Shown piece by piece: positions 2,299-29,978 of a DNA stretch of 35,265 nucleotides; the first letter of the stretch is position 1; the number at the start of each line of letters is the position of its first letter. The position numbers were made by a program, and so were the translations under genes. The stretch lies in the IMG/VR virus record IMGVR_UViG_2579778866_000006; one strand, given 5' to 3'. Below the pieces are notes generated by a model. That model saw only the letters and a list, made by a program, of their open reading frames with translations. It was not told the origin of the DNA and ran no database searches. Origin of the DNA: a virus (taxonomy: Duplodnaviria; Heunggongvirae; Uroviricota; Caudoviricetes).

Positions 2299-3483
2299 AT
2301 GAGTGAAACTCGTTTTCATGGTGCCCGTGTTACGGAAAGTACCGACCTGGTAACAGCGATTAATGATGTTGATTCCAGTGTTATCGGTATCGTGGCAACG
2401 GCGGATGATGCGGATGCGGAGCTGTTCCCGCTGAACAAGCCCACACTGCTGACCCGCGTCAATGACGTGCTGGGAAAATGCGGAACAACGGGGACGCTTT
2501 ATCGTGCGCTTAAGGCCATCGCAGACCAGGTGAGCACAAAGGTGATCGTCGTTCGCGTGGCTGAACACAAAGAAGAAGACGGAAAAACGCAGGATCAACT
2601 GGTTATCGGTGGTTCTGAATCTGACGGCAGCTATACGGGGATGTATGCGCTGCTTGTTGCAGAGCAGGATGAAAGCATCGGATACCGTCCGCGTATTCTG
2701 GCCGCGCCGGAGCTGGACACGGAGGCGGTAACAAAATCCCTGTGCGTGATTGCGGGTAAACTGCGCGCGTTTGTGTATGCCTCATGTCACGGCTGTAACA
2801 CGATGGCTGAGGCGATTACCTACCGCCAGAAATTCAACGAACGTGAGGTGATGCTCTTATGGCCGGACTTCATCGCCTACAACCCGAAAAGTGGCAAAAA
2901 CGAAACGTTCCCCGCGCCTGCCTATGCGTGCGGCCTTCGTGCGTACATTGACCATGAGCAGGGCTGGCACAAATCGCTGTCCAACGTTCCGGTTAAAAAT
3001 GTGCTGGGGATGTCCAGGCATGTGTTCTGGTCGTTGCAGGCCGAAGACAGTGATGCCAACAGCCTCAACAACAAAGAAATCACGACCATTATTCGTCGCA
3101 ACGGGTTCCGTTTCTGGGGCAACCGCACCCCGGAAACGAACGCCTACATCTTTGAGGTGTATACCCGAACCGCACAGGTGCTGGCTGATTCAATTGCGGA
3201 AGCGCAGTTTGAAACCATCGACAGTCCACTGACGCCTGCGAACGTGAAAGATGTTATCAGTGCCATCAGGGCAAAACTGGATTCACTGGTTACTGCCGGG
3301 AAACTGATTGGGGCGTCGTGCTGGTATGACGTGGTGGATAACGGCACCACGAATTTACGTCAGGGGCGCGTGCGTATTCGCTACAAATATACGCCTGTTC
3401 CCCCGCTGGAAGACATGGAGCTTTACCAGTCGTTTACTGATGAATTCTTTGGTCCCGCATTTGCGGTGCTGGGAGGTGCCTGA
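2299..3483 (+). CDS. FI: Contractile tail sheath protein FI
   Basis: 394 aa; conserved blocks shared with P2 FI (ADDADAELFPLNKP, RAFVYASCHGCNTMAEAITYRQKF, WPDFIAYN, EQGWHKSLSNV, RRNGFRFWGNRT, YTPVPPLE). Confidence 0.95.
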   Translation: MSETRFHGARVTESTDLVTAINDVDSSVIGIVATADDADAELFPLNKPTLLTRVNDVLGKCGTTGTLYRALKAIADQVSTKVIVVRVAEHKEEDGKTQDQLVIGGSESDGSYTGMYALLVAEQDESIGYRPRILAAPELDTEAVTKSLCVIAGKLRAFVYASCHGCNTMAEAITYRQKFNEREVMLLWPDFIAYNPKSGKNETFPAPAYACGLRAYIDHEQGWHKSLSNVPVKNVLGMSRHVFWSLQAEDSDANSLNNKEITTIIRRNGFRFWGNRTPETNAYIFEVYTRTAQVLADSIAEAQFETIDSPLTPANVKDVISAIRAKLDSLVTAGKLIGASCWYDVVDNGTTNLRQGRVRIRYKYTPVPPLEDMELYQSFTDEFFGPAFAVLGGA

Positions 3484-20997: not shown

Positions 20998-22749
20998 ATG
21001 ATTCAGGACGCTTTTGTGCGCCAGCGTGCGCGGCAACTTTACTGGCAGGGTTATCCGCCCGCAGAAATATCACGTCTGATGGGAATAAACCCGAACACGA
21101 TTTATGCGTGGAAAAAACGCGACCAGTGGGATGAAACGCCACCCGTGCAGCGTGTCACGCAGTCCATTGATGCGCGCCTCATCCAGCTTACTGAAAAACA
21201 GAATAAAACAGGCGGTGACTTTAAGGAAATAGACCTGCTGACCCGGCAGCTTAAAAAGCTGCATGATGGCCAGCCGGATGTGATGGCCGCAGGAAAGAAA
21301 GGCCGGGCGAAAAAACTCAAAAATCATTTCACGCCGGAACAGATTGCCGCACTGCGGGAAAAAATCATCAGCAGGCTGGAGTGGCATCAGCGGGGCTGGT
21401 TTGACTCCCTGACCCTTTGCAGGGAAGCCGGGATACGTAACAGGATGATCCTGAAATCCCGACAGATTGGGGCGACCTGGTATTTTGCACAGGAAGCACT
21501 GCTGATGGCGCTGCGTGACGATGTGGCGCAACCTTACCAGCGTAACCAGATTTTTTTGTCTGCGTCGCGTCGTCAGGCGTTCCAGTTTAAAAGCATTATT
21601 CAGAAGGCCGCGGCTGAAGTTGATGTGGAGCTGAAAGGGGGCGATAAAATCATCCTCTCCAACGGCGCAGAGCTGCATTTTCTCGGCACTTCTGCTGCGT
21701 CGGCACAGTCCTATACGGGCAATTTTTATTTTGATGAATTTTTCTGGGTCAGTCGCTTTGCTGAACTGCGCAAGGTGGCTGGCGCTATGGCAACCCTCAG
21801 CGGACTGCGGCGCACCTACTTCTCCACGCCATCCACCGAAACGCACGAGGCATACGCCTACTGGAACGGCGACCGCTGGAACGAGAAAAAGGCCTCGCAT
21901 AAACGCCAGCGTTTTTCTGTGGACTGGAAGACGCTGCATAACGGACTTATCTGCCCTGACCGGACATGGCGGCAGATTGTCACGCTGGAAGATGTGGTTA
22001 ATCACGGCTGGAAACACACCGATATTGACGAAATCCGTGATGAAAACACCGAAGACGAGTTCCTCAATCTCTACATGTGTGAGTTTGTCCGCGAAGGGGA
22101 ATCGGCATTTAACCTGAATATCCTGATTGGCTGCGGCGTTGACGGATACGACGACTGGAAAGACTGGAAACCTTTTGCTCCCCGCCCGATGGGAAATCGT
22201 CCGGTATGGATTGGGTATGACGCAAACGGCAGCAGTGGCAATGGCGACAGCGGCGCTGTGTCCGTGGTGGTTCCTCCGGCTGTTCCTGGTGGCCGTTTTC
22301 GAACGGTGGAGACGCGACGCGTTCAGGGGCTGGAGTTTGAAGAACAGGCCAGAGTCATTGAAGAGTTCACGTGTCGCTACAACGTGGAACACATCGGTAT
22401 TGATGTGACGGGCGGGAACGGGGAGGCTGTTTATCAGATAGTGAAACGGTTTTTCCCTGCTGCTATTCCGTACACCTTCACGCTGTCATCAAAACGGTCG
22501 CTGGTACTGAAAATGCTGCAAATAATGCGTGCCGGGCGGTGGGAATACGATCGCGCCGAACGCGAGCTGGTCGCGGCCTTTAACGCCGTGCGTAAGGTGA
22601 AAACACCGGGCGGCTTTATCACTTACGAAACGGACCGCGCGAGGGGGATCAGCCACGGCGACCTTGCGTGGGCAACCATGCTTGCTGTCATTAACGAACC
22701 GATTGGCGGCGAAGGAGAAAACGAGCGTTTCACGGTTATGGAGTTCTGA
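20998..22749 (+). CDS. P: Terminase large (ATPase) subunit P
   Basis: 583 aa; divergent from O and followed by the portal gene with overlapping stop/start, as in P2. Confidence 0.9.
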   Translation: MIQDAFVRQRARQLYWQGYPPAEISRLMGINPNTIYAWKKRDQWDETPPVQRVTQSIDARLIQLTEKQNKTGGDFKEIDLLTRQLKKLHDGQPDVMAAGKKGRAKKLKNHFTPEQIAALREKIISRLEWHQRGWFDSLTLCREAGIRNRMILKSRQIGATWYFAQEALLMALRDDVAQPYQRNQIFLSASRRQAFQFKSIIQKAAAEVDVELKGGDKIILSNGAELHFLGTSAASAQSYTGNFYFDEFFWVSRFAELRKVAGAMATLSGLRRTYFSTPSTETHEAYAYWNGDRWNEKKASHKRQRFSVDWKTLHNGLICPDRTWRQIVTLEDVVNHGWKHTDIDEIRDENTEDEFLNLYMCEFVREGESAFNLNILIGCGVDGYDDWKDWKPFAPRPMGNRPVWIGYDANGSSGNGDSGAVSVVVPPAVPGGRFRTVETRRVQGLEFEEQARVIEEFTCRYNVEHIGIDVTGGNGEAVYQIVKRFFPAAIPYTFTLSSKRSLVLKMLQIMRAGRWEYDRAERELVAAFNAVRKVKTPGGFITYETDRARGISHGDLAWATMLAVINEPIGGEGENERFTVMEF

Positions 22750-23795
22750 TGAGCAGAAAAAATAAAAAAGTGCGCATGAGTTCACGCATTGATCTCGCTG
22801 ATGCGCTCAGGAAAGAATCATCGCTCAGTGCATTCACATTTGATGGTCCTTATCGCCTGACCGGGCATGACCTGCTGGACAATATGTACTGTGCTGATAA
22901 CGGGCGGTGGTATGAAACCCCGGTGGACTGGTACGGTCTGGCAAGAGCTGCCCGGCAAACGTCCTGGCATCAGTCTGCGCTTTACTTTAAGCGTAATGTA
23001 TTGCTCGGCTGCTATATTCCGCATCCGCTGCTTTCCCGGCAGGATTTCTCGGCGCTGGCGCTGGACTGGTTTGTGTTCGGTAACGCATTCCTTGAGCTTC
23101 GGAGCAATATGCTCGGCGAACCGCTTAAATTACGGCACGCCCTGGCGAAATACATGCGACGCGGAAGCGATCTTGAATCATGGTGGTATGTGCAGGATGG
23201 CAAGGACGCGTTTCAGTTTCGCCCTGGCAAAGTGTGCCACCTGATGAATCCTGACATTAACCAGGAAATCTACGGCATGCCGGAATATCTCGGCGCATTA
23301 CTCTCGGCCAGCCTGTCTCATTCGGCGGACATGTTCAGAAAACTGTATTACGACAACGGATCCCACGCCGGGTGTATCATCTACATCGGTGCAGCGCAGG
23401 TAAACCGCGAAAGCATGGACTCCCTGAAAGAAACGCTACAGGGTGCACGTGGTGGTGGTGCGTTTAAAAACGTGCTCATTCATGCGCCCAACGGGGGCAA
23501 AGAAGGTGTGCAAATTTTGCCGTTCCAGCAGATCACCGCAAAGGATGAGTTCATGAATGTTAAGGCGGCATCCCGTGATGATGTGCTGGCTGCGCACCGC
23601 GTTCCGCCGCAACTGATGGGGGCGATGCCGGGTGAAAAAAGTGCGTTTGGTGATGTGGAAAAGGCCGCGCGGGTTTACGCAATTAACGAGCTGATGCCCG
23701 TTATGGAGGCCATGAAGCACATCAATGACTGGCTTGGCGAAGAGGTGATCCGTTTTAATTCTTATGCTCTTCTTGATGAAAAAACAGCCCCGTGA
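22749..23795 (+). CDS. Q: Portal protein Q
   Basis: 348 aa; immediately follows P; size matches P2 Q. Confidence 0.9.
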   Translation: MSRKNKKVRMSSRIDLADALRKESSLSAFTFDGPYRLTGHDLLDNMYCADNGRWYETPVDWYGLARAARQTSWHQSALYFKRNVLLGCYIPHPLLSRQDFSALALDWFVFGNAFLELRSNMLGEPLKLRHALAKYMRRGSDLESWWYVQDGKDAFQFRPGKVCHLMNPDINQEIYGMPEYLGALLSASLSHSADMFRKLYYDNGSHAGCIIYIGAAQVNRESMDSLKETLQGARGGGAFKNVLIHAPNGGKEGVQILPFQQITAKDEFMNVKAASRDDVLAAHRVPPQLMGAMPGEKSAFGDVEKAARVYAINELMPVMEAMKHINDWLGEEVIRFNSYALLDEKTAP

Positions 23796-23815
23796 TGGGG
23801 CTGTCCTTTTTACCA
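23781..23815. terminator. Bidirectional terminator shared by convergent Q and the 175-aa cargo gene
   Basis: Stem cagcccc / ggggctg with 5-nt loop, flanked by an A-run and a T-run. Confidence 0.65.
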
Positions 23816-24335
23816 GAGTTGAACCATTTTCTGGGTGCCGTCAGGCTTGAGATTATCAATTTCAGAGAGAACGTAATATTGAATGGCTTCACAAACGGTG
23901 GTGTATGGTGAATTACCTTCTTTAAGTGGCACGATATTATTATTAACGCGAACCTGTATTTCATCGTTATACATTGCGATCGAAAGAGGAGTATGCACGA
24001 AGGCGACTTCGCCAGGTGTGTCGTCAACCACTGTCTCAATGCTGAAAATCAGTTTTCGCTCATCATTGCCGCCCCTTGCTTTGGGGGTAGCGGCAGGAAT
24101 CTGAGATAAAGGCATTCTGCGAAACCCTTCAGCCGTTTCCAGTCCGCATGAAACGTAATGCTGGCGATTACCGTCGCTATCCGTCCATGTCTGTGATGGC
24201 AGCTCCAGAGAGATTTCATAAGCATCAACAATTCCCTGGGCAATGCGTACAAGCGGGGTCAGGTCTTCATTGCGGCGAAAACTCTCCTTTACCTGATCTC
24301 GTTTTTCTCGTAACTGCTTGTAATTAATGACCATA
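23810..24335 (-). CDS. Hypothetical protein (175 aa), cargo gene at the Q-proximal accessory hotspot
   Basis: Start placed at the ATG (MVINYKQL) preceded by GGAGG with a 7-nt spacer; no similarity to anything I recognise. Confidence 0.6.
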
Positions 24336-24832
24336 GAACAGCCTCCATTGATTTCTTTGCTCGTATTTTGCACTTATGAAGTGTGGTCGGCAAGGTGCCG
24401 CATCACTGACGCGCTTCGCTTGTCTGCTGCTTCGCCGGGGCATAAAAAATTTATGCCCCGACTCTCCAGCTCCTGTATCAATCAGATAATTTCGCGACGT
24501 CTTCCGACTTATCGCTATCATCGACGGCCAGACTCTTACACAATCCCGCCGCGCTGACTGCATGTTCTCGCCGCCTCAGTGCGATTTTGACGGCCTTACC
24601 TTTCATCCCATCAAATCAGAACACCTTACGTCTTTTTCACGCTCAGCGTGAGCGATACAGCCATTCTGTTGTGTCGCTGCGACATCGTTCAGGGAATGCT
24701 ATTTACCCCCTGAAACGCGGGCTGTTCCCCCGTCACCTGCGCGCAGAAAAAACGCGTTTTTTTGTGCACGCACGGATCCCTGACGGATCCAGCCGCCACG
24801 CGGGCCGGAAGGGCAAAAAGTCGTTCAAAAAA

Positions 24833-24862
24833 ATTGTGCAAATTTGTGCACTATTGTGCATT
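24833..24862. repeat. Three helically phased direct repeats of TTGTGCA (10-bp period)
   Basis: attgtgcaaatttgtgcactattgtgcattg in the non-coding region downstream of the 135-aa gene. Confidence 0.5.
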
Positions 24863-24893
24863 GAAATAAACGCTCTGGAGGAGGGCGTTTTAC

Positions 24894-25301
24894 TTATCTT
24901 TTATAGCCTTGCCCCTTCCTGGCCAGCGCCCTGATGGCCGGGCGTGCCAACACCATATTTTGGCAATGATGAATTGCCCGGCAAAATTCATCTCTACCCA
25001 TTGGATGCTCAACTGGCAATGTTAAATACAGGTTCCATGCGTCGCCTAAAAGTTGGGCTATCTTTTGTTCTTCAGATGTCAGCAAGCAAGCGGTATCCGT
25101 AAAATAATCATACTTTTCATGTATGTTATTTAACGGTTTTGTCTGTAGTGCAGCCTGAGCTATACGGTATGCCTGAAGCATACGGGCGTCGTTGATATCC
25201 ATTCCGAACGGAATTTCTGATGATTGTGACTCTGCATCTTCAAGCCTGGCAATTTCTTTACGTAAGAAGTATTTCAACTCTTGTTTCTGTTTTCTGTTCA
25301 T
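24894..25301 (-). CDS. Hypothetical protein (135 aa), cargo gene
   Basis: ORF on the same strand as A/parMR, with a ribosome-binding site; followed by a terminator-like hairpin; no recognisable domain. Confidence 0.55.
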   Translation of the reverse strand: MNRKQKQELKYFLRKEIARLEDAESQSSEIPFGMDINDARMLQAYRIAQAALQTKPLNNIHEKYDYFTDTACLLTSEEQKIAQLLGDAWNLYLTLPVEHPMGRDEFCRAIHHCQNMVLARPAIRALARKGQGYKR

Positions 25302-25369
25302 GCTTTTTTTCCTTTTTCTCTGTCAATGTGTTGCATTGTGTCCCCCTTGTTTATGTTCCCGGATTAAAG

Positions 25370-25394
25370 TCATCAGGGCGGATGCGCCCTGATG
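25370..25394 (-). terminator. Hairpin directly downstream of the parR-like gene
   Basis: Stem catcagggcg / cgccctgatg with 3-nt loop; weak T-tract. Confidence 0.4.
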
Positions 25395-25399
25395 TTGTG

Positions 25400-25711
25400 T
25401 TATTCGGGAAATAACGCCCGGATATTTCCGGCCATCTGACTGGTTATCTGTGCGGTTGATACTGGCTGTGACGCGGGGCATTCTGTCCTGGTTTGTGTCA
25501 CTGATAACGCCTCATCGTCAGCCCATGCAGCCAGTCGGTAAGCCTCTGCCGGATTCATTTTCAGAAGTGCCAGCCCGGCCAGAAAAGCCACGCGTTGGCC
25601 GCTTTTGCGGGCTTCTGGTGTAAGGCTGTCCAGCCAGGCGCATGCTTCGCTTTCGTTCTTGACGGCCGCAGGCTTCAGATAGAAACTTATCCGTCTGGTT
25701 GGTGTCGTCAT
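25400..25711 (-). CDS. ParR-like small protein downstream of parM (putative centromere-binding adaptor)
   Basis: ATG (MTTPTRR) lies 4 nt after the parM stop, with AGGAG overlapping that stop; about 103 aa. Assignment rests on position and size only. Confidence 0.45.
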   Translation of the reverse strand: MTTPTRRISFYLKPAAVKNESEACAWLDSLTPEARKSGQRVAFLAGLALLKMNPAEAYRLAAWADDEALSVTQTRTECPASQPVSTAQITSQMAGNIRALFPE

Positions 25712-25715
25712 TGGT

Positions 25716-26675
25716 TTACTCCTTGTCCATTGCGTACAGCCCATTAACCAGAGCAAACTGTGGCACCCCGTCCGCGATGAAAGTCGCATTAACTCCGCAG
25801 GCTTCGCGGATAGCGGGTGCCACAATCTCCGTCCCGCCACCGACAACCATCACCCGCCCGTAACCCGAAAAACCCGCCAGCGCGCGGATCACGCGTTGTT
25901 TCAGTGTTTCTTCCTTTTCACGAATAACCGCCATCAGGCTGGCGTAATGCGCGTCATTGTGGATGTGCTGGCGCAGCCAGGCTTCATCATGGCGATGTTC
26001 GATAATGGTATTGGCGATGTGGTGACTGGTGCGCATACCGTTAGTGGCCATCACCGACAGTACGGCATCGGCCATCAGAGAAACGCCTACGTGTGGATCG
26101 CAAAACACCTGGCTGATACCTGCCAGTTGCCCCTGAACCTTTGCCACATCCAGCGTGGTTCCGCCCAAATCCACAATCAGCAGGGATTCAAACGGACTCA
26201 TGTCAGCCAGTGCTTTAAAGCCAGCCGGAATAGATTCAGGCATAACCCGCACGTTACGGATAGTGAATGCCTCGCCGTTCTGGTACTCCACCGGGCGCAT
26301 AACGTTCGCTTTTTTGCGGTTGATGTTGGCCATGTCCGGCTGTGCGTTTGTGTCGAAATACTCGCTCAGTGGCAGGGTGACAACCACATCCACCTCCTGT
26401 GGCGTGATGCCTGATTTGACCAGCGCATGATGAATGGCAATGACATTCACATCGCTGTACTGGTATTGCGTGTCGGTCGTCTGGACAAAGCGATCGCTGA
26501 CCGGATCAAAACCATAGCGCACGCCATCAAGCATGTAGTTCGCGGGCTGCGTGCCACCGAACGGCGCAGACCATTCCGACTTGAAGCTGTTCGGGCTGAT
26601 GGCGTTGCGGCGTTCGCCGTTCTCAGTCCATGCCAGCTTGATGTTGGTGGAGCCGTCGTCGATACAAATTTTCAT
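25716..26675 (-). CDS. parM: ParM/StbA-family actin-like ATPase (plasmid segregation protein homologue)
   Basis: 319 aa; strong resemblance along the whole length to plasmid R1 ParM (IDDGSTNIKL, SPNSFK, QYSDVNV.A.HHAL, ANF/ANV, VMPESIPAG, LLI.DLGGTTLD, FSGY..VMV.GGG, LVNG.Y). Confidence 0.85.
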   Translation of the reverse strand: MKICIDDGSTNIKLAWTENGERRNAISPNSFKSEWSAPFGGTQPANYMLDGVRYGFDPVSDRFVQTTDTQYQYSDVNVIAIHHALVKSGITPQEVDVVVTLPLSEYFDTNAQPDMANINRKKANVMRPVEYQNGEAFTIRNVRVMPESIPAGFKALADMSPFESLLIVDLGGTTLDVAKVQGQLAGISQVFCDPHVGVSLMADAVLSVMATNGMRTSHHIANTIIEHRHDEAWLRQHIHNDAHYASLMAVIREKEETLKQRVIRALAGFSGYGRVMVVGGGTEIVAPAIREACGVNATFIADGVPQFALVNGLYAMDKE

Positions 26676-26751: not shown

Positions 26752-29592
26752 TCATATATCGCTGCGCGTTTTTTGCTCATTTACGGGATTCGTGAGTCCC
26801 GTTTCTGTCTGTTTTTTGTTTCCACTGGTCAGGCCACCCCGCAGCAGGTCTGCTTTGCGGCTGGCGCGTTCAGTGGTTTCACTGATTCTCTGTGTGTGCT
26901 CTGCGTCGCGGATGGCGCGCAGCATGTCAGAAAGCACGGTAACGGGTGTTTTCATGGTGTTCTGGTCCTGCTGAAGTGTGGATGCCAGGCGTGCGGCGGC
27001 TTCAGGGTCTGATGCCCCCAGCTGTGCCAGATAGCTGGCGACCGGGTTATGGCGGATCTCCGTGCTGCTTACGCCATGATTACGGCTCAGGCGCTGCCAG
27101 AGCTGCGTGATTCGGCTGTCCGGGCGGGTATCCGGTTTGCGTACAATTTCAAATCCCTGCGGTGCAATGATGCTGCCGTCAACGTACAGACTGCCGCCCC
27201 GTAACAGGTGCTGCATCTGTTGTTCACCGATATGCAGGCCGAGAGATTCAGCAGACTCCCGCCATTCTTTAGCGAGTAATTCGTGGTTATCAGGCAAAGG
27301 CCGCTGCTGTTTACGGCTCTGTGTCCAGCTCTGCATTTCATCACTGCTGTTTTTTGCCTGTTTGTCACGAAGCGAACGCATCAGCGCCCGGCGTTCGTGC
27401 CGTTTCAGTGAGCGCATCCATTCGTTCACTTCAACGCCGTCAGGGAGCTGCGGCCACGGTACTGGCCGTTCTTCCGGCTGTTCTGTCCCGTTGTTGTCCG
27501 TTTCCTGTACACGGGGACAGTTATTGCCACGAGTCCAAGGGGCGGCAGGGCCGCCCTGAAGGTCAAAACCATTTTCGCGGGCGCTGTCTTCCGCTTCCGG
27601 TTTACGTCTTACCAGCTTCCAGTTATCCGGGTGCGTGCACACGCGGGAAGACTCCCCGATGAGCGGCGACCAGATCCCGTAAATCTGTACACTCTGCTCG
27701 CCGTAATCGTTCAGCTCATCTGCGAGGTCGTAGGCGGTGCGAATCAGGTAGTCTTTGCGTGGAACAAGTACGCCACCCTGTTTCTCAATGTAGGTGGCAA
27801 AACATCCGGCATCAGCGGCAGCGAGTACCGCGTCCATTGCGTCATCCTTCAGCCGTTGCGGGCCTTCCGGGTTGCGTGCCATCTGGCTGGCAAGGCGGCG
27901 CAGTTCACGCCACACCTGACGGGAGGGGATACCAAAGAACTGGAACTGGCGGACCCGGTGAAGGCGCGCCCAGCCGATGGCGCGTTCCACGCTCTCGGCC
28001 ATTGATTTTCCGGTTTCGTGGTCAACGCGTGGCTTGCCCGTTTTCGGGTCGATGCCATCCACGGCGCGGCTGTCCAGGTTCTTTCCGATGTAGGTGGCGA
28101 TGTAGCTGGTTGGTGTGCCTTTTGAGCCGTCGACATACTCCACCTTAAAGCGCGGAGTAATATCATTGCCCAGCTCGTGGCGGTCTTCCTGAATGGCAAT
28201 ATCGCGGGTGATGGCCACGATGCTGTCGATTTCTTCCGGATGAGCAAAGACCATCATGTGCCAGTGCACGGTGCCGTCATGGTGAGGCTCCACCGTGCGG
28301 ATGCCATACCAGCGCAGGCCGTCGCGGTTCAGTTTTTTGCGGACCGCCGCAAAAAACGTGTTAACCAGGTAATCGCTGGAGTCGCGCATGGTGGCCCCGT
28401 TCCATTTGGGGTTCGGATGACCGTTCTCCGTTGTTGCGTGGTATTTTGACGGGCAGGTGACAGTCAGAAACACCGCTCTGTCGCCACGGGCTTCGGCCAG
28501 AAGTTCCAGTCCCTTCATGGTGGCCATCATTTCTGCCTTACGGTGGACCGGGTTACTTACTCCCGCGTAATACACCGTCTCGAGATCAATCGTGAACCCG
28601 TCTTCGTTTTCCAGCATGAAACTTTTCAGGAAATCGCGTGTTTTCTCGCGCTGTGCGCGAAACTCGCTTAACGCGTCCTGGCTCAGATAGGGCGATGTTT
28701 TTCTGGAAACCAGACAGGCGGCGCGGAGTTGTTCTTCCCGCCACTCGCAACGTAACAGCCACAGTTTGCGTTTCCACCATTCTGCACAGGTCAGGCGGAG
28801 GATTGCGCCCGGCAGCAGTTCCGTGTCCGGTTCGTTCTTGCGGTCTTTGTCTGTTGTCAGTGCGTCATAATGTGGAGGCATGGCGTGCAGGTGTAACGCC
28901 ATGCGGGCCAGCATCTGATACGCCTTCAGTGCCACCTCCATGGTCAGCTCACCATCGGTCGCGCCAAAGCCATCGCAGAGTTTTTCGAAGGTGCTGCTGA
29001 ACATCGCCGCCGTCATGGTGGCCAGCGTCTGTATCTGGTGCTTGTTGAGCTGCGGCAGGTAAAGCAAATCATCCAGGCGTTCGCGTCCGGCAAGGGAGCG
29101 ATAACCCGGTGTCAGCCAGCGGTGGTCGGTGCGGTCCAGGCGTTCGAATATTTTGCGCAGGGTTCCGCGCGCGTAGCGTTCAGCCTGCCAGCTCTTTTTG
29201 CCTTTCTGGCGATCGGCTTCCTGTTTTTTGCGCAGGAAAGAGAGGTGGCGGCTCAGAGGTTCACGCAGATAAACGGGAAGCACCTTCAGTGTGGCAAAAG
29301 CACGGGCTACCGGGTCTTGTTCTGTTGCCCGGCGCTTACTGATGATGCTCTGAGCCAGCTTTTCACGCTGTCCGGCTTCCTCAAGGGATGCCATGAGTTT
29401 TTTACCCATGGCGGATTGTGCGAAAAAGGCTTCCTCCTTCGCTTCCTGTTCTTCCCGGGCCTTTTTGTCCGCCTCAAGGTAGTAACGGATGGCGCGTTGC
29501 AGGTCGGTTTCAGTTTCCTGCCTGCGCTCCGTAAATCTGGCCGGATCAATGGCTGGTCGTGGTTCATTCCAGCTCCATGCAAACTCACTCAT
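26752..29592 (-). CDS. A: Replication initiation endonuclease A (rolling-circle initiator)
   Basis: Large ORF at the end of the early operon with P2/186 A-family features (HWHMMVF histidine motif, YIATYIGKNLD); start placed at MSEFAWSW, whose ATG overlaps the upstream stop (ATGA). Longer than P2 A. Confidence 0.85.
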   Translation of the reverse strand: MSEFAWSWNEPRPAIDPARFTERRQETETDLQRAIRYYLEADKKAREEQEAKEEAFFAQSAMGKKLMASLEEAGQREKLAQSIISKRRATEQDPVARAFATLKVLPVYLREPLSRHLSFLRKKQEADRQKGKKSWQAERYARGTLRKIFERLDRTDHRWLTPGYRSLAGRERLDDLLYLPQLNKHQIQTLATMTAAMFSSTFEKLCDGFGATDGELTMEVALKAYQMLARMALHLHAMPPHYDALTTDKDRKNEPDTELLPGAILRLTCAEWWKRKLWLLRCEWREEQLRAACLVSRKTSPYLSQDALSEFRAQREKTRDFLKSFMLENEDGFTIDLETVYYAGVSNPVHRKAEMMATMKGLELLAEARGDRAVFLTVTCPSKYHATTENGHPNPKWNGATMRDSSDYLVNTFFAAVRKKLNRDGLRWYGIRTVEPHHDGTVHWHMMVFAHPEEIDSIVAITRDIAIQEDRHELGNDITPRFKVEYVDGSKGTPTSYIATYIGKNLDSRAVDGIDPKTGKPRVDHETGKSMAESVERAIGWARLHRVRQFQFFGIPSRQVWRELRRLASQMARNPEGPQRLKDDAMDAVLAAADAGCFATYIEKQGGVLVPRKDYLIRTAYDLADELNDYGEQSVQIYGIWSPLIGESSRVCTHPDNWKLVRRKPEAEDSARENGFDLQGGPAAPWTRGNNCPRVQETDNNGTEQPEERPVPWPQLPDGVEVNEWMRSLKRHERRALMRSLRDKQAKNSSDEMQSWTQSRKQQRPLPDNHELLAKEWRESAESLGLHIGEQQMQHLLRGGSLYVDGSIIAPQGFEIVRKPDTRPDSRITQLWQRLSRNHGVSSTEIRHNPVASYLAQLGASDPEAAARLASTLQQDQNTMKTPVTVLSDMLRAIRDAEHTQRISETTERASRKADLLRGGLTSGNKKQTETGLTNPVNEQKTRSDI

Positions 29593-29978
29593 GGCTGGTA
29601 TCCCGTCACGCGCTGCCACTCCTGCGAGAAGATGGCGGAAAGGCGGTCAAATTCAGCGGTGTATTCACTCAGCGAGGCACACCCGCCAGCAGTGCGATGC
29701 GCCAGTATTGCCGCAAATACGGAGGCCGGGGAGTCGTAATACGCCAGTAGTGATTCGCCGTGTGGTGTCAGGCAGTGCAACGCCAGCCCGTGTGGTGTGA
29801 AGTCCACGCGGTAGCAGTCGTCTACTGTGAAATAAAGGGTGTCTGCATTCTCCGGTTTTGTGGTGCGTGCTCTGTTGTCACGACCACGGATGTAGAGATC
29901 AAATAATCCCTGAAGAACGGGAGCCAGACGGGTGTCCTGTGTGCGCACCCATCTTGTGAAGTCATGAGCGTCAATCAT
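29589..29978 (-). CDS. Hypothetical early protein (129 aa)
   Basis: ORF translationally coupled to A (ATGA overlap). Confidence 0.6.
   Translation of the reverse strand: MIDAHDFTRWVRTQDTRLAPVLQGLFDLYIRGRDNRARTTKPENADTLYFTVDDCYRVDFTPHGLALHCLTPHGESLLAYYDSPASVFAAILAHRTAGGCASLSEYTAEFDRLSAIFSQEWQRVTGYQP

Follow-up and report, generated by a model that had tools for sequence, protein, structure and literature searches.

Among described systems, one of the closest to the locus studied here is the pair of genes old and tin of phage P2, which lie beside the cohesive-end site cos, between the replication gene gpA and the portal gene gpQ. In the P2-like prophages of Escherichia coli, this cos-proximal gpA-gpQ interval is a hotspot that gathers anti-phage genes (Rousset et al. 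2022, PMC9122126). We consider here IMG/VR record IMGVR_UViG_2579778866_000006, a stretch of 35,265 nucleotides called the window in what follows, which is a P88-like E. coli prophage (genus Xuanwuvirus, Peduoviridae) and thus a relative of P2. Between its portal gene and its ParR, ParM and gpA genes lie two minus-strand genes: gene 1, at positions 23810..24334, encodes 174 amino acids and a stop, starting from a conserved ATG, and gene 2, at positions 24894..25301, encodes 135 amino acids. A sequence-only reading of the window had placed these genes, with a structured spacer between them, on an island at the position of old and tin, and had seen in them the best candidates for an undescribed defence, exclusion or anti-defence function. 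What it observed is real, and its interpretation is partly supported. With somewhat more confidence than doubt, we favor a reading in which genes 1 and 2 are unrelated accessory genes that flank, on opposite sides, a conserved block that probably contains cos, and do not form a two-gene system; in the same reading, gene 1 is a classic moron inserted at the stop codon of the portal gene.

Genes 1 and 2 share with old and tin their location beside cos in the gpA-portal interval, and the property of being non-essential and variable among relatives. They have no sequence relation to them, however: no OLD, AAA or TOPRIM domain was found in either protein, and the comparison of the gene 1 family to Tin with hhalign yields a probability of 0.4%. 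The Old protein of P2 is an ATPase/nuclease of 586 amino acids, whereas the proteins of genes 1 and 2 have no enzymatic features. The orientations also differ, since old and tin are read from a promoter beside cos in the direction of gpA, and gene 2 points the opposite way, in line with gpA and the parM and parR genes (parMR). Finally, only gene 2 lies on the side of cos that carries old and tin: gene 1 sits between cos and the portal gene, a stretch that in P2 is 167 bp long and contains a terminator but no gene.

The locus is an instance of the hotspot of Rousset et al.: it lies between gpA and gpQ beside cos, its content varies, and known defence systems occupy it in relatives. The premise of a hotspot is thus correct for this phage lineage, and it was already published. 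What is new here is the way the interval is organized: the hotspot study treats it as one locus, whereas in this lineage it resolves into two slots around a fixed core.

The evidence for this organization comes from 80 sibling loci of IMG/VR, retrieved with the portal as bait and on which the parts of the window were mapped, and from a survey of 5,426 complete E. coli genomes. A block of 460 base pairs (bp), at 24401..24860, is present with 92-99% identity in all 80 sibling loci, and was found in 1,142 of the 5,426 genomes, at 1,308 places. Because every sibling has it, this block belongs to the core of the phage and not to its cargo. Its position is that of cos in P2, between old and Q. In addition, the record of phage P88_4B11 (LR595891), the only P88-type record deposited as linear, has ends that map between 24815 and 24816. 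The conservation of the block and the ends of this one linear record, together with the P2-equivalent position, are the reasons to conclude that it probably holds cos. Neither the P2 nor the 186 cos 19-mer occurs in the block when up to 5 mismatches are tolerated, and a BLAST comparison of the spacer between the two genes with the cos junction of P2 found nothing. A candidate for the core of cos is the most invariant stretch of 30 bp, at 24716..24745, in which 90% of the columns are invariant among 70 distinct copies.

Several smaller features lie within the block. An inverted repeat with a perfect 11-bp stem, at 24436..24460, lies in its best-conserved part, with invariant columns; in phages that lack gene 1, this hairpin comes about 30 nucleotides after the portal stop. 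The 65 bp around it, 24406-24470, are found with 94% identity in an unrelated peduovirus lineage (locus L120, 7001-7065), which makes this segment more widely shared than the rest of the block; there, it follows an ogr/Delta-like gene sited between the portal and cos. A P4-type satellite was considered as the source of the partial matches to the 65 bp and rejected, the matching locus being a peduovirus with ogr beside the portal. At the other extreme, a hypothetical minus-strand open reading frame (ORF) of 42 amino acids, at 24478..24606, annotated in P88, PhiR44_2 and P88_4B11, falls where the block is least conserved; many residues of its C-terminal half vary among relatives, and it may therefore not be a gene. 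Three plus-strand TTGTGCA repeats with an exact 10-bp spacing, at 24834..24860, mark the edge of the block, and four of the seven copies of this heptamer in the whole window fall within 24762-24860, one of them at 24762-24768. These repeats resemble iterons, and may be bound by the small subunit of the terminase or by some other protein. They adjoin the mapped ends of the P88_4B11 record, and the block is also present in loci without parMR.

Comparing the same locus across related prophages, as the sequence-only reading had itself proposed, confirms a variable slot and at the same time cuts the interval in two. On the portal side of the block, the 80 sibling loci show two states only, gene 1 or empty. 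In 48 of them, the portal stop abuts the conserved block, at the equivalent of 24401-24406; the other 32, like the window, carry an insert of about 640 bp. On the gpA side, the slot between the block and ParR/gpA, compared in 66 sibling loci, is as short as 85 bp in some and as long as 3.7 kb in others; dozens of ORF clusters occur in it, among which are defence systems.

The insert on the portal side is a cassette that spans 23760..24404, its left edge being approximate and within the 3' end of the portal gene. This gene (gpQ, plus strand, 22749..23795, 348 amino acids, PF04860 match) has its last five codons re-coded by the cassette: it ends in TQPTS and a stop at empty sites, and in EKTAP and a stop in the window. 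The last six codons that the two forms share (SYALLD; 23757-23795) contain five synonymous differences between genomes with gene 1 and empty ones, so that the cassette must have recombined at a point within the portal gene, and not at its stop codon. That stop codon is in the loop of a terminator-like hairpin, at 23784..23804, with a 9-bp stem that includes six GC pairs and with a plus-strand T-run; the hairpin is bidirectional and common to the portal gene and gene 1. The guanine-cytosine (GC) content of the cassette is 46%, versus 53% for the core.

At its other end, gene 1 is preceded by a Shine-Dalgarno sequence GGAGG (24342..24346, minus strand), 7 nucleotides before the ATG, and by a predicted sigma-70 promoter (24365..24393, minus strand), formed of a -35 box TTGCCG (24393-24388) and a -10 box CAAAAT (24370-24365) separated by a 17-nucleotide spacer. 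A promoter scan missed it, since it agrees with the consensus at 8 of 12 positions and the threshold was 9 of 12. Five diverged upstream regions, whose proteins are down to 60% identical, were compared: the only invariant islands are CTTG, CAAAAT, at a fixed 17 nucleotides, and GGAG.

Gene 1 is present in 397 of the 5,426 complete E. coli genomes (about 7%), and at 403 of the 1,308 sites where the conserved block was found (about 31%, or nearly a third of P88-like prophages). Homologues that are 85%, 62% and 60% identical sit at the same site, convergent with the portal gene, in three other peduovirus lineages, which lack parMR. Compared with 20 other alleles, the ratio of nonsynonymous to synonymous substitution rates (dN/dS) lies between 0.06 and 0.24, and all 21 distinct alleles are free of stop codons. 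These values point to strong purifying selection, and tell against a pseudogene. With its conserved signals and its terminator, gene 1 has the layout of a stand-alone transcription unit, kept at one spot in several peduovirus lineages.

The protein itself belongs to a PHROG family that carries no credible functional label. It matches phrog_5091 over positions 1-164 of 164 of the profile (E 8e-66), and its close homologues, all of 172-179 amino acids, start with MVINY. An exhaustive HMMER search brings 78 cluster representatives, mostly of 155-175 amino acids and 22-36% identical to gene 1; the 57 distant relatives that were aligned all match phrog_5091. Residues Y40, S43, L44, L46, W51, G56, Y61, V62, F98 and T102 are conserved in the family alignment, which contains no catalytic-looking motif. 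Neither gene 1 nor any of the 57 relatives has a match in Pfam, and gene 1 has none in NCBIfam. In PADLOC, gene 1 matches no family, and one of the 57 relatives has a single marginal match (E 0.009). The claim that neither protein could be assigned to a family thus stands for Pfam, NCBIfam and PADLOC, but both match PHROG families, unannotated or mis-labelled.

The AlphaFold model of the gene 1 protein (predicted local distance difference test score, pLDDT, 77.5; predicted template modelling score 0.72) is a confident one: two helices at the N-terminus are followed by an antiparallel sheet, and a further helix closes the chain at the C-terminus. A fold search found no real structural neighbour of this model, and sequence profiles compared with the PDB gave no match. 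The protein is mildly acidic (isoelectric point 5.0), soluble, and without any hydrophobic segment of the transmembrane kind. These properties, and the lack of a catalytic motif in the family, suggest a binding protein rather than an enzyme.

Distant relatives of gene 1 in the lambdoid and Mu-like prophages of IMG/VR are found after the lysis cassette and before the HNH/terminase genes; others have the Q antiterminator or a methylase on one side and the holin on the other, and still others adjoin the tape-measure gene. All these are typical positions for morons. A scan of genome contigs found 2 loci only. Morons of temperate phages, such as bor and lom of lambda and gp15 of HK97, are said to have been described by Juhala et al. 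in 2000 and by Cumby et al. in 2012. Like them, gene 1 stands alone, has a predicted promoter and a predicted terminator for itself, and separates two genes that are direct neighbours in related phages; collinear genomes show a clean empty site, and its base composition deviates from that of the core. It departs from them in that its product is predicted to be cytoplasmic, whereas classic moron products are membrane proteins or lipoproteins; its expression in lysogens is something we infer.

If gene 1 is indeed a moron, the weak sigma-70 promoter, the strong Shine-Dalgarno sequence and the bidirectional terminator would make its transcription from the prophage independent of the late operon, and the small, soluble, non-enzymatic alpha/beta product would act by binding another protein. 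Our tentative first choice of a role is lysogenic conversion, for example the exclusion of other phages. The strongest competitor, which we hold to be unlikely and somewhat less probable than conversion, is that gene 1 encodes an anti-defence, or counter-immunity, protein, whose promoter would be active at genome entry and which would inhibit a host defence by binding to it in stoichiometric amounts. A small, acidic, soluble protein without enzymatic features and without fold match would suit this role, and so would the place of its gene, the first one inward of the probable cos end, with its own predicted promoter; the lack of PADLOC matches, candidate defence families included, goes in the same direction. 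However, gene 1 is carried by only about 31% of otherwise near-identical prophages, and no regulator or known anti-defence gene adjoins it.

Turning to gene 2, on the other side of the block, the first observation is that its expression appears to depend on its neighbours. These are, all on the minus strand, the ParR/StbB-like partition protein (25400..25711; PF10784, E 4e-24), the actin-like partition ATPase ParM (25716..26675; PF06406, E 2e-82) and the replication endonuclease gpA (26752..29619; PF05840, E 1e-130). In E. coli STEC1590, a gene of 333 bp with a ClpX-type zinc finger separates ParR from gene 2, whose start it overlaps by ATGA. In the window, 295 bp of this gene are deleted between the short direct repeats GACAGAGAAAAAG and GACAGACAAAAAGG, as seen by comparing 25298-25400 to positions 2985-3410 of locus L116. 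What remains is a minus-strand ORF of 12 codons, MQHIDREKGKKA followed by a stop, at 25298..25336, still in ATGA overlap with the ATG of gene 2. The same type of C4 zinc-finger gene is also gp19 of P88 (333 bp). Between ParR and the remnant ORF there are only 63 bp and a GC-rich hairpin with a 10-bp stem (25371..25394), which leaves no room for a promoter; with the ATGA chaining, this implies transcription of gene 2 from upstream. Thus, having no promoter of its own, gene 2 does not have the build of a moron, and it is, as its sequence context indicates, the last gene of a gpA-parM-parR transcription unit.

The gene 2 protein is a basic, all-helical fusion of a leader, residues 1-65, and a domain, residues 70-134, that matches positions 2-66 of 67 of phrog_13916 (E 9e-30). 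Residues 1-64 match phrog_660 (E 8.5e-7). The name 'DNA ligase' attached to phrog_13916 is implausible for a profile of 67 residues. The two parts also exist apart: the leader, 88-100% identical, is joined in other proteins to C-termini of at least three further kinds, and residues 70-134 recur behind another leader or alone, in proteins of 75-86 amino acids. We found no match to gene 2 in Pfam or NCBIfam, and its only PADLOC match, RT_UG36 (E 0.019), is noise. A metal site formed by H99, C107, H111 and C113 was considered and rejected: H111 and C113 are not kept in the Pseudomonas homologue. The GC content of gene 2 is 43%, and the full-length gene is present in 88 complete E. coli genomes, or about 7% of P88-like prophages.

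Across Hafnia, Yersinia, Pectobacterium and Enterobacter, the C-terminal domain of gene 2 is conserved, with 63-84% identity. As a stand-alone protein, it overlaps or follows gpA in P2-like prophages of Yersinia and Hafnia, and in Yersinia phage YenM_42.18. It is also found in the T5-like Erwinia phage KEY, in the tRNA/early region, and in 200-kb (jumbo) phages of Pseudomonas putida, between the clamp loader and dihydrofolate reductase genes. Among the homologues from all these phages, 14 residues are invariant. Since strictly virulent phages retain this domain, a role in prophage defence is unlikely.

Two groups of early phage genes offer partial parallels. The first is orf91 of P2 and the other small early genes that come after gpA: the stand-alone gene 2 domain of Yersinia and Hafnia peduoviruses is at the same site, overlapping or abutting the gpA stop. 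The product of orf91 is, however, a DUF3850/ASCH protein unrelated to gene 2, and in the window parMR and the deleted zinc-finger gene separate gpA from gene 2. The second group consists of the lambdoid Ead/Ea22 early proteins (PF13935), which, like gene 2, join a helical N-terminal leader to interchangeable C-terminal domains. The likeness is one of architecture only: gene 2 was rejected as a member of this family, having no match to PF13935 and a BLASTP E value of 1.9 against an annotated Ea22-like neighbour protein. Proteins annotated as 'ead/Ea22-like' by PGAP occupy the same slot in sibling prophages.

On this evidence from sequence and gene order, it is more likely that gene 2 serves the early programme of the phage itself, where it would assist replication, help to take over the host or counter host defences, and that it does not defend the lysogen. 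The contrary explanation, that gene 2 is defence or exclusion cargo of the hotspot, expressed in lysogens from a parMR promoter, seems to us improbable. The slot in which it lies does hold defence systems in siblings: PADLOC identifies there, with E values from 1e-27 to 1e-131, IetA/IetS, PD-Lambda-5_B with an ATPase, an AbiLi-like system, a KAP NTPase (PDC-S20), PDC-M11A and PDC-M04A. The low GC content of gene 2 and its presence in few P88-like prophages would also befit such cargo. But its domain is shared by virulent phages, both T5-like and jumbo, and stands immediately behind gpA in other peduoviruses; moreover, its product of 135 amino acids has no enzymatic or membrane feature, and its PADLOC matches do not rise above noise. 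The suggestion that both genes are candidates for defence, exclusion or anti-defence is therefore reasonable, if unproven, for gene 1, and much less so for gene 2, whose domain and orientation, in line with gpA and parMR, speak against it; for neither family does PADLOC offer a convincing defence model.

The content of the slot on the gpA side can be described further. The sibling loci that bear the systems and pairs described here are L056/L085, L068/L074, L076/L078, L055, L033, L073, L016 and L042. The AbiL-like ATPase comes with a small partner, and PDC-M11 with an ASCH-like one. Of two more pairs, one looks like a Fic/Doc toxin with its antitoxin and the other like an HTH-peptidase M78 with a PIN protein, and locus L065 has a protein of 485 amino acids without PADLOC match. 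The parMR genes, directly after gpA in this integrating P2-like prophage, are missing from about 8 of the 66 loci (L015, L016, L021, L023, L055, L065, L068 and L074), and thus behave as accessory cargo themselves. The available part of Table S5 of Rousset et al. 2022 (PMC9122126) contains at least 489 mentions of loci with StbA and Plasmid_stab_B, and their table of tested systems shows no arrangement that contains StbA.

Some observations weigh against the reading that we favor. The roles of both families are predictions from sequence and context. The promoter of gene 1 is itself predicted, with only 8 of 12 positions in agreement with the consensus, and the distant relatives of gene 1 are co-oriented with late genes, so that they could be late-expressed or virion proteins and not morons of the lysogen. 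The AlphaFold model of gene 2 (pLDDT 55.6) is too poor to interpret, and was left out of the fold search. The context of a hotspot raises the prior probability of defence for anything found there, gene 2 included, and gene 2 could be expressed in lysogens if parMR has its own autoregulated promoter.

A rival reading, that genes 1 and 2 and their spacer make up one two-gene defence or exclusion island in the manner of old and tin, fares much worse. Both genes are co-oriented within the gpA-gpQ hotspot, and real defence systems occupy the same interval in sibling prophages. The spacer, 24335-24893, is also structured as claimed, since it folds better than 100 of 100 shuffles (z = -4.3), although it measures 559 bp and not 520; and the terminators said to flank the genes have counterparts in the terminator-like hairpins at 23784-23804, 24868-24890 and 25371-25394. 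However, 460 bp of what lies between the genes are core sequence of every relative, gene 1 has its own predicted promoter while gene 2 is chained to parMR, and neither gene is homologous to Tin or to any PADLOC model. Moreover, the two genes assort independently, and their separate occurrence is far commoner than their joint one: the whole 1,605-bp query is covered by 11 of the records listed, where about 27 joint occurrences would be expected if the genes were independent, and among the five IMG/VR loci with a full gene 2, gene 1 is present in two and absent from three. We thus consider a single island to be highly improbable. Equally hard to sustain is the idea that one or both ORFs are decaying remnants without function: the adjoining zinc-finger gene is deleted in the window and truncated copies of both proteins exist in databases, but the dN/dS values and the 21 intact alleles out of 21 already contradict decay for gene 1, the gene 2 domain with its 14 invariant residues is kept across genera and phage families, and Shine-Dalgarno sites and start codons are intact.

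A few features complete the description of the region. The large terminase gene (20998-22749, plus strand) precedes the portal gene. The hairpin at 24868..24890, directly downstream of the gene 2 stop, has a 9-bp stem and is terminator-like on the plus strand; in all, 9 terminator-like hairpins were found in the region, versus 3.0 expected. As for the limits of the two minus-strand ORFs, those of gene 2 had been given exactly, along with its 135 amino acids, while those of gene 1, given as 23810..24335 and 175 amino acids, were off by one base. A megablast search with 23400-26000 returns Escherichia phages PhiR44_2, P88 and P88_4B11, and Citrobacter phage Shae_phiSM, at 94-96% identity, and all these alignments are gapped in mid-query. 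A search of 23700-25500 against Rfam gave zero matches. The few papers on Xuanwuvirus and P88 are silent on both genes, and the PHROG identifiers were not found in the literature.

Real as it is, the finding is of an ordinary kind, since a pair of orphan accessory genes has been located in a hotspot that was already known. Gene 1 lends itself well to testing as a candidate exclusion protein made in the lysogen or as a candidate anti-defence protein. It is present in about 7% of complete E. coli genomes, is under strong purifying selection and has no recognizable fold or family, which makes it an inexpensive and clearly delimited choice for a phage-panel or anti-defence screen. It is conceivable, though we would not count on it, that the phrog_5091 proteins are a new family of prophage effectors, with a fold unseen in solved structures and a dedicated promoter, placed at the cos-proximal end of peduoviruses and at the moron sites of lambdoid and Mu-like prophages, where, through binding to a target protein, they would keep competing phages out or disable a defence of the host. 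Should neither gene have a phenotype, the hotspot would be seen to house ordinary early and accessory genes as well. For the P2 hotspot, the comparison brings a refinement: in the P88-like lineage, a slot with many kinds of cargo, next to gpA, and a separate slot with two states, next to the portal, are divided by a fixed core block that probably contains cos. Any survey in which the whole gpA-gpQ interval is treated as a unit will thus merge unrelated genes into false "systems".

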